Below, piece by piece: positions 36,737 through 37,003 of a stretch of DNA of 39,293 bases. Under the pieces are notes generated by a model. The model did no database searches and was not told the origin of the DNA. It worked only from the letters and a program-made list of their open reading frames with translations. The DNA is from Escherichia phage phiv142-3: sequence record MN187550.1; one strand, given 5' to 3'. The position numbers were made by a program, and so were the translations under genes. How positions within the stretch are numbered: the stretch's first letter is position 1; each line of letters begins with the position of its first letter.

Positions 36737-37003
36737 ATGAACAAGGTTTCAATGCGCAGCCCTTCAAAGGTTGTTGCCGTTACTCCTGCGGCGATAGAGA
36801 TCGAAAAACGCGCGATTGAAAGAGAGAAAAAAGGGCAGTTCCGCATTGCCGCCCACCTTTGGCTTCAGTGTATGGATGTTGCTTCTGGTGATGTTGAACG
36901 TGCAAGGATCGCGGTTCGCAGGGACCAATGTATCACAAAAGGTAACGGCCTTCGCCGTGGCGACTATAGCGGCATAGGATGTTGCGGGGTGGTTTATGAC
37001 TAA
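36737..37003 (+). CDS. PerC-like transcriptional activator (prophage Pch-type)
   Basis: 88 aa; ...IEIEKRAIEREKKGQFRIAAHLWLQCMDV... resembles the PerC-family core (...GLWRRAATRWL...); an alternative start 15 nt downstream has an AAGG RBS. Confidence 0.45.
   Translation: MNKVSMRSPSKVVAVTPAAIEIEKRAIEREKKGQFRIAAHLWLQCMDVASGDVERARIAVRRDQCITKGNGLRRGDYSGIGCCGVVYD

Follow-up and report, generated by a model that had tools for sequence, protein, structure and literature searches.

A 99-residue PerC-domain protein in the early operon of phiV10/epsilon15-type podophages and its possible role

The stretch of DNA considered here, referred to as the window, is the 39,293-base sequence of Escherichia phage phiv142-3 (MN187550.1). 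For the greater part it aligns with the genome of Escherichia phage phiV10 and with Escherichia coli prophages inserted next to guaA, and it is therefore a complete temperate podophage genome of the phiV10/epsilon15 type (Uetakevirus), cut at its attachment site. Toward its right end, on the plus strand, lies an open reading frame (ORF) of 88 amino acids (aa) at 36737..37003. A sequence-only reading of the window had described this ORF as a PerC-family regulator in the integrase-proximal part of the rightward operon, after the excisionase gene, and had proposed that it could tie prophage induction to host gene expression, PerC/Pch-type activators of pathogenic E. coli being prophage-borne and acting on chromosomal virulence operons. 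The ORF and its position are as described. Comparison with its relatives indicates that it is a copy of a 99-aa PerC-domain protein conserved throughout the phiV10/epsilon15-type temperate podophages, all of which have the gene; in phiV10 it is known as PhiV10p34.

The match of the ORF to PerC is real and far above chance. The Pfam PerC profile (PF06069) scores 30.3 bits against the 88-aa ORF (E 5e-7; aa 24-69), exceeding the gathering score of 22.6, and 99-aa relatives score 30.5, 26.5 and 30.4 bits. When one such relative (P0001, 99 aa, 98% identical to the window ORF) is compared by BLASTP with PerC of enteropathogenic E. coli (EPEC; plasmid pMAR2), 60 residues align at 40% identity (E 4e-10), and hhalign of a 55-homologue profile against EPEC PerC gives a probability of 94.8% (E 5e-8) over 57 columns. 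PHROG 868, labelled 'transcriptional activator', is matched at E 1e-54. Profile and pairwise comparisons thus agree in assigning the ORF to the PerC family, as had been called from the sequence alone. The counterpart of the ORF in phiV10, PhiV10p34 (YP_512289.2), is the same gene at the same position and is labelled in RefSeq 'transcriptional activator; identified by similarity: Pfam PF06069'; a second counterpart is RefSeq WP_001335975.1, 'PerC family transcriptional regulator'. The PerC-family annotation of this gene is therefore long-standing and not new. A PDB sequence search with the 99-aa form returned nothing below E 0.7, and EPEC PerC was not recovered when plasmids were searched by tblastn with the phage protein. 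PADLOC gave no defence-system match for the gene or its operon neighbours, and Rfam placed no RNA family at or near the locus.

The true extent of the gene is longer in its relatives. The homologues (n=55) are 97-105 aa long and carry an additional conserved N-terminal segment, of which Y10 and H11 are kept in at least 90%. The start of this longer form, GTG or ATG, shares bases with the stop codon of an upstream 38-aa gene. The window has such a GTG at 36705, overlapping the TGA of the upstream gene (GTGA), and the full PerC-like gene as found in relatives would occupy 36705..37003 on the plus strand (99 aa from the GTG). In the window it is interrupted at 36726, where a one-base deletion (A5 to A4) shifts the 99-aa frame into a stop; a single A inserted at the deletion site brings the 99-aa protein back (VRKLSRLEKYHMNKV...). 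The 88-aa ORF is the part left in frame after this deletion. Distant alleles (P0067- and P0091-type) have an ATG at the upstream start and no methionine at the position of the 88-aa start. Database starts disagree, giving 88 aa in phiV10 and 83 aa in RefSeq; the length favoured by conservation is 99 aa. The deleted A4 version is absent from all 538 E. coli records that contain the gene and from IMG/VR contigs and GTDB representative genomes (0 in each); the intact A5 version occurs in 97 IMG/VR contigs. More specifically, phiV10 shares ~98% DNA identity with the window over 36300-37900 and has the same neighbours (AlpA, 38-aa peptide, MT-A70, DUF1382 and integrase), whereas the deletion cuts off the upstream GTG start in the window only. 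Because the upstream start is conserved and the deletion that breaks its frame is private, the 88-aa product is a shortened reading of the 99-aa gene, with the conserved N-terminal 11 residues out of frame.

The pattern of substitution indicates a real coding gene under purifying selection, because dN/dS is low (0.02-0.29; 0.12-0.29 between divergent alleles) and synonymous changes outnumber non-synonymous ones (6:1, 14:1 and 15:1 between close alleles). The 1.6-kb region around the gene occurs in 561 of 5,426 complete E. coli genomes (about 10%), in most of them with 95-99% identity, and 27 phage records have it too. Listed E. coli carriers include avian and extraintestinal strains, and the genera named for homologues are Salmonella, Citrobacter, Klebsiella, Raoultella, Enterobacter, Kosakonia, Superficieibacter and Erwinia. 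These other genera, like the listed extraintestinal carriers, mostly lack LEE, the enterocyte effacement locus. A profile search of 1.84 billion representative proteins produced only 55 matches at E up to 1e-3, and the 99-aa subfamily is therefore narrow. The weaker matches scanned included Pch-type proteins, short PerC-type proteins and proteins of 139-153 aa with a C-terminal PerC domain; in one of these longer proteins the N-terminus resembles winged-helix (MarR-type) families weakly, below threshold. P0129, P0149 and P0163, long matches in several stretches that suggested arrays of motif repeats, were dismissed as unrelated: two are FIVAR- and Sushi-repeat proteins and the third matched only DUF6253.

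The genomic setting is conserved along with the protein. The core order RecT, AlpA, (38-aa peptide), PerC-like, methyltransferase, integrase is kept in E. coli and Kosakonia relatives whose alleles are 60-70% identical. The methyltransferase family varies among these relatives (MT-A70, Dam, or a C5-methylase fused to Dam), and in some of them the core order is interrupted by DUF1317, NinX or an unknown 220-aa gene. All 80 of the 80 IMG/VR loci with the E. coli allele have AlpA, the 38-aa peptide, the PerC-like gene and MT-A70.

The PerC-like gene lies well inside a long plus-strand series of genes. The series begins with an HTH_3 repressor gene (32364..32948, plus strand; counterpart of phiV10 p40), which is followed by a terminator-like hairpin (32969-32988) and a promoter-like site, TTGACA-17-AATTAT, at 33040..33068 on the plus strand. 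TTACC-N5-GGTAA palindromes flank this site (33006-33020 and 33068-33082) and also lie in the divergent region before the repressor gene (32277-32308). They are candidate operators of the phage repressor, as expected at an early-left promoter, and the promoter-like site probably drives an early operon that includes the PerC-like gene. The window regions that share these palindromes are 32241-32312 and 33006-33098. After the promoter-like site come small ORFs, a 344-aa ORF (33260-34294), a PD-(D/E)XK nuclease gene, RecT and an AlpA-family gene for a putative excisionase/regulator (36347..36595; Pfam Phage_AlpA 24.2 bits vs 21; PHROG 66 E 2e-16). Then follow a 38-aa predicted membrane peptide (36592..36708; PHROG 17484 E 2.6e-27; annotated as PhiV10p35), the PerC-like gene, an MT-A70-family DNA adenine methyltransferase gene (36996..37642), broken by four one-base deletions, and, as the last gene of the operon, a DUF1382 gene (37639..37833; Pfam DUF1382 E 7e-30; PhiV10p32), all on the plus strand. 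A tyrosine integrase gene (37837..39086, minus strand) is convergent with them at the right end of the window and is split by a one-base deletion at 38727; about 830 bp separate the end of the PerC-like ORF from the 3' end of the integrase gene.

The junctions between these genes are tight. The stop of the AlpA gene overlaps the next start (ATGA), the GTGA overlap would link translation of the 38-aa peptide gene to that of the PerC-like gene, and the methyltransferase start overlaps the PerC-like stop by 8 nt. From alpA to DUF1382, four of the five genes overlap their upstream neighbour at start and stop, and the PerC-like gene, the fifth, does so from the GTG at 36705. A consensus scan placed no plus-strand promoter-like or terminator-like site adjoining the PerC-like gene. 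Given the overlaps with both neighbours and the absence of such adjoining sites, the gene is an internal member of the early operon and not a self-contained moron. Its placement behind a repressor-controlled promoter makes it plausible that the product is made after infection or induction and that the gene is silent in a stable lysogen. Thus, the tie to prophage induction suggested by the sequence-only reading is plausible from operon placement, as judged from consensus matches.

Two features further upstream in the operon differ from phiV10. The 344-aa ORF, coiled-coil-like with a high content of E, A, R and K, has no Pfam or PADLOC match; it is not in phiV10 and has a 355-aa counterpart in some relatives (loci L005 and L009). 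The window has separate nuclease (DUF3799/PD-(D/E)XK) and RecT genes at 34598-36297, as do most relatives, unlike the phiV10 record, in which a single 1,761-bp RecE-RecT fusion is annotated (L001:4238-5998).

The AlphaFold2 model of the protein, built on the 55-sequence alignment, has a mean predicted local distance difference test score (pLDDT) of 74, rising to about 85-91 over residues 31-80. Helices span residues 6-17, 28-42, 46-59 and 63-80, followed by a low-confidence tail at 86-99; this C-terminal tail is conserved (YSGIGCxGVVYD) yet disordered in the model. No helix-turn-helix or other DNA-binding fold was found in the model. With a pI of 9.5-9.9 the phage protein is basic, like PerC, Pch and the PerC-family protein EcCIMP1_025, and the prediction is of a small helical bundle with a TPR-like shape. 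Modules of this kind usually have peptides or proteins as their ligands.

Comparison with EPEC PerC reveals both a common core and clear differences. The two proteins share the pattern E-x-K-G-x-Y/F-R-x-A-A-x-x-W ... R-x-x-C ... Y-S-x-I, and among the 55 homologues the invariant columns are E41, W53, R72, R73 and C76. The phage protein, however, matches positions 5-50 only of the 90 in Pfam PerC, and its hhalign match ends at residue 64 of 89 in PerC and residue 50 of 104 in Pch. PerC has ~25 further C-terminal residues with no counterpart in the phage protein, whereas the phage protein has an extra N-terminal helix, not found in PerC, and its own conserved tail. The perC gene lies on a plasmid behind perA (encoding the AraC-type PerA) and perB, in contrast to the early-operon location of the phage gene. 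Activation of LEE1 by PerC is experimentally established.

The Pch proteins are closer to PerC than to the phage protein in their extent: an alignment of PerC with Pch covers 87 residues, the C-terminal halves among them, at 47% identity, while Pch aligns with the phage family at an hhalign probability of 75% over 41 columns of the core only. PchA/B/C of enterohaemorrhagic E. coli (EHEC) O157:H7 resemble the phage gene in being PerC-family and prophage-borne, but a pch gene of O157:H7 belongs to a lambdoid prophage, where it is flanked by lysis and terminase genes, and the phage gene sits in an early operon of a phage of another type. The features of Pch group 1 (104 aa, whole-length PerC similarity, lysis-terminase site) are absent from the phage gene. 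Thus, by domain content and location, the phage protein is a PerC-domain protein and not the equivalent of PerC or Pch.

Published work on the family shows diverse activities. Pch, whose anti-silencing action is experimentally established, activates LEE1 only under silencing by H-NS/StpA/Hha and lowers H-NS occupancy (PMC4764244), and ler responds little or not at all to PchD and PchE (PMC5931665). Phage-inducible chromosomal islands of E. coli commonly carry PerC-family genes (PMC6092414). An island protein of this family, EcCIMP1_025, represses LEE1 in Citrobacter rodentium, the opposite of what PerC does; ANR matches were noted by its authors, who proposed ANR-like action (PMC11773190). EcCIMP1_025 aligns with the phage family at an hhalign probability of 92%, about equal to that of PerC, and its island also has integrase and AlpA genes, like the phage. 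In contrast to the phage gene, which follows AlpA and the 38-aa peptide, EcCIMP1_025 lies at the island's far end and not beside alpA; its alignment with PerC spans 75 residues at 37% identity and takes in some of the C-terminal region. Because tested PerC-family members activate, ignore or repress LEE1, family membership predicts neither the sign nor the target of regulation.

PerC-domain genes recur in the early operons of other elements, namely Shigella phage SfV, K-12 CPS-53 and Pantoea phage AH07. E. coli K-12 has its own PerC homologue, YfdN (PMC5931665). YfdN (CPS-53) and Orf40 (SfV) resemble the phage gene in having a PerC domain and an early-operon position directly upstream of a DNA methyltransferase gene (yfdM in K-12, dam in SfV). 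They differ in being 162-164 aa long, with weak, sub-threshold MarR-type winged-helix matches ahead of the PerC domain, and in belonging to a replication-side operon, whereas the phage gene is integrase-side. In Pantoea AH07, ParB-like and tRNA-guanine-transglycosylase-like genes lie two genes downstream of the PerC-domain gene. The loci with a PerC-domain gene just ahead of DNA-modification genes are L005:5290-6655, L006:5445-7439, L009:5311-7373, L011:1787-2784, L004:3710-4851, L015:8113-8882 and L016:3282-5906, and the modification genes of Uetakevirus relatives are MT-A70, Dam or a C5-methylase fused to Dam. This recurrent adjacency, seen by inspection of loci, may be a chance feature of accessory regions. 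The strictly lytic N4-like Escherichia phage Pollock also has a PerC-superfamily gene, of 80 aa (L017:3498-3740), which argues that the PerC domain has uses unrelated to lysogenic conversion.

Taken with the analogies above, the protein may be an early-expressed, small TPR-like modulator of nucleoid-associated or regulatory proteins, acting chiefly for the phage's benefit; this tentative reading is given a probability of roughly 0.4. After infection or induction, the repressor-controlled promoter would transcribe the long early operon toward the integrase, and the PerC-like product would be translated together with the 38-aa peptide and the methyltransferase through the start/stop overlaps. 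By analogy with Pch and ANR proteins, it would then contact nucleoid-associated or regulatory proteins and so alter transcription early in the cycle. The phage programme would be the primary beneficiary, any effect on the host being secondary. It is more economical to suppose that the gene serves the phage than that it serves virulence, because the hosts extend beyond LEE carriers, relatives of the gene occur in a lytic phage and in early operons, and lysogeny by the close relative ZX5 left the tested measures of growth, biofilm, adhesion and virulence unchanged (PMC9782041). The ZX5 result is what a gene kept silent during lysogeny would give.

Several points weigh against this reading. A Foldseek search of the PDB gave only weak MIT/TPR matches, none significant, and although a TPR-like fold would fit a protein-contact mechanism, the inference from fold is weak because TPR-like helical folds are very common. 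The promoter, operator and terminator calls are consensus matches only. The phage protein does not have full-length similarity extending through the C-terminal part of PerC/Pch, and its activity may therefore differ or be absent. Direct contact with H-NS is not established even for Pch; Fukui et al. did not detect co-precipitation of PchA with H-NS (PMC4764244). Literature searches for PhiV10p34 and the window protein found no experiment on either. A ZX5 paper on the phage 'and its regulatory protein' concerns another gene, its 'perc' text matches being the word 'percent'. Finally, the window copy itself may be non-functional if the deletion at 36726 is real.

The tight gene overlaps raise the alternative that the protein works within the phage module only, in the control of excision or integration or in assisting the methyltransferase, with no effect on host transcription. 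Its start/stop overlaps with the 38-aa peptide and the methyltransferase would suit such a role, as would its fixed place between the AlpA gene and the methyltransferase despite the changing methyltransferase family, and the PerC-domain genes that precede dam in SfV and yfdM in K-12 or stand near the ParB-like and transglycosylase-like genes of AH07 extend the pattern. However, the adjacency may reflect a shared accessory region, and the inserted DUF1317, NinX or 220-aa genes of some relatives interrupt it. To our knowledge, no mechanism ties PerC-type proteins to recombination or methylation, which also counts against this role. It is regarded as unlikely.

A second alternative, judged about equally improbable, is that the protein is an anti-activator of the ANR type, which would bind AraC-family regulators, H-NS or both, with net repression of host regulons. 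ANR proteins are anti-activators of AraC-type regulators (PMC4983702) that bind these regulators and H-NS (PMC4983702, PMC5570504), and the repression of LEE1 by EcCIMP1_025, with ANR-like action suspected by its authors, speaks for the idea (PMC11773190). ANR proteins (Aar of enteroaggregative E. coli, Rnr of EPEC) are small and helical like the phage protein, and the A/E/A/W motif of the first helical hairpin is common to both. Within the ANR signature A-x3-E-x7-A-x3-W-x2-A ... W-x3-R, residues A26, E30, A38 and W42 of the 88-aa ORF fit the spacing and the later A and W are unmatched; the phage model has four helices versus three in the ANR signature (PMC4983702). The TPR-like shape is also in keeping, as Rnr has weak TPR matches. 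The NCBIfam profile ANR_neg_reg (NF033650) scores 24 bits against the 88-aa ORF (E 2.6e-5; range of scores 24.0-25.6 bits), which is better than the 18 bits of EPEC PerC itself but under the curated cut-off of 32. Profile matches are sub-threshold in both directions, hhalign against Rnr reaches 3.6% with only a short aligned motif, and BLASTP finds nothing meaningful. In addition, the phage protein is longer than typical ANR proteins, with an extra helix and tail. Membership of the ANR family was rejected on the sub-cut-off profile score, the hhalign value and the BLASTP result. Rnr of EPEC (L012:3001-3234, E2348/69 chromosome) lies in the early region of a Mu-like prophage, with Mu transposase, an AAA ATPase and DUF3164 as neighbours; ANR and PerC-type genes thus share a phage-early-region habitat.

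The proposal of the sequence-only reading, that a PerC/Pch-type activator couples prophage induction to virulence operons such as LEE, fares less well and is considered quite improbable. It draws on PerC-family membership, on the repressor-controlled operon and on the infection by phiV10 of O157:H7, a LEE carrier. Only the N-terminal core is common with PerC/Pch, however, the genomic position is unlike that of pch, and homologues extend across genera that mostly lack LEE. Group 1 pch genes do rise on SOS or prophage induction (PMC5931665, PMC7369912), but PchD and PchE barely act on ler (PMC5931665) and the island relative EcCIMP1_025 represses LEE1 (PMC11773190). Adhesion and virulence were also unchanged by ZX5 lysogeny (PMC9782041). 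Taken together, the core-only similarity, the LEE1-repressing relative, the wide range of host genera and the ZX5 null result leave the link to chromosomal virulence operons unsupported.

The deletion at 36726, which drops the conserved N-terminal 11 residues from frame, is one of six one-base deletions relative to all relatives in the interval 36726-38727 (36726, 37078, 37236, 37292, 37496 and 38727). Four of the six fall in the methyltransferase gene (37078, 37236, 37292 and 37496), one in the integrase gene (38727) and one at the start of the PerC-like gene (36726). A further position, 31878, is listed along with the clustered six. Under a uniform spread the clustering has P of about 6e-6. 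Against the closest relative, the interval has 14 substitutions and 6 single-base gaps, and the adjacent 2.4 kb has 35 substitutions and 0 gaps; no single-base frameshifts of this kind occur in the 9-kb structural block that was compared. Each of the six events is a loss of a base, and for five of them the site is a short homopolymer run. Because the ratio of indels to substitutions is far above that of decay, and because the events fall in same-base runs near the sequence end, the deletions are probably local sequencing or assembly errors. That all three genes are instead truly inactivated, leaving a decaying, locked-in prophage with a functionless ORF, is suggested by the strong clustering across the three and by the absence of the 36726 deletion from all other sequences in the collections searched, but is held to be very doubtful, since neutral decay would leave far more substitutions than indels, deletions alone, mostly in same-base runs near a sequence end, are typical of read or assembly error, and the structural block is free of such frameshifts.

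Elsewhere in the window, Rfam matches on the plus strand to the isrK Hfq-binding RNA (5189-5265; 67.7 bits) and the C4 antisense RNA (5290-5374; 61.2 bits) suggest a P1/P7-type antisense control module, the target of which is probably an anti-repressor of the kind reported in the related phage ZX5. A tRNA-Arg gene (anticodon TCT; 23993-24069, plus strand) lies between the structural and terminase genes, and an E. coli prophage relative has the same tRNA. The region 2001-4000 is low in GC (34-40% vs about 50% elsewhere); it is the site of the O-antigen acetyltransferase in phiV10 and would be a likely target of H-NS silencing.

The label 'transcriptional activator' was taken over from EPEC PerC and may be in error, since the tested members of the family differ in what they do to LEE1 (activation, no action or repression). 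A broader reading, to which only a small probability is attached, is that the PerC domain is a minimal TPR-like protein-binding module of phage origin, of which PerC, Pch and possibly ANR would be later re-uses; in phiV10/epsilon15-type phages the module would be the product of a core early gene, translated jointly with an enzyme of DNA modification and remodelling host nucleoid or regulator complexes on infection or induction. If this were true, the placement of PerC domains upstream of DNA-modification genes would be functional and not accidental. On present evidence, the gene is an ordinary, previously annotated accessory gene. If the phage version does modulate H-NS-type silencing or AraC-type regulators on induction, which is conjecture, it would be a host-regulon switch in a prophage that is very common in extraintestinal and commensal E. 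coli.

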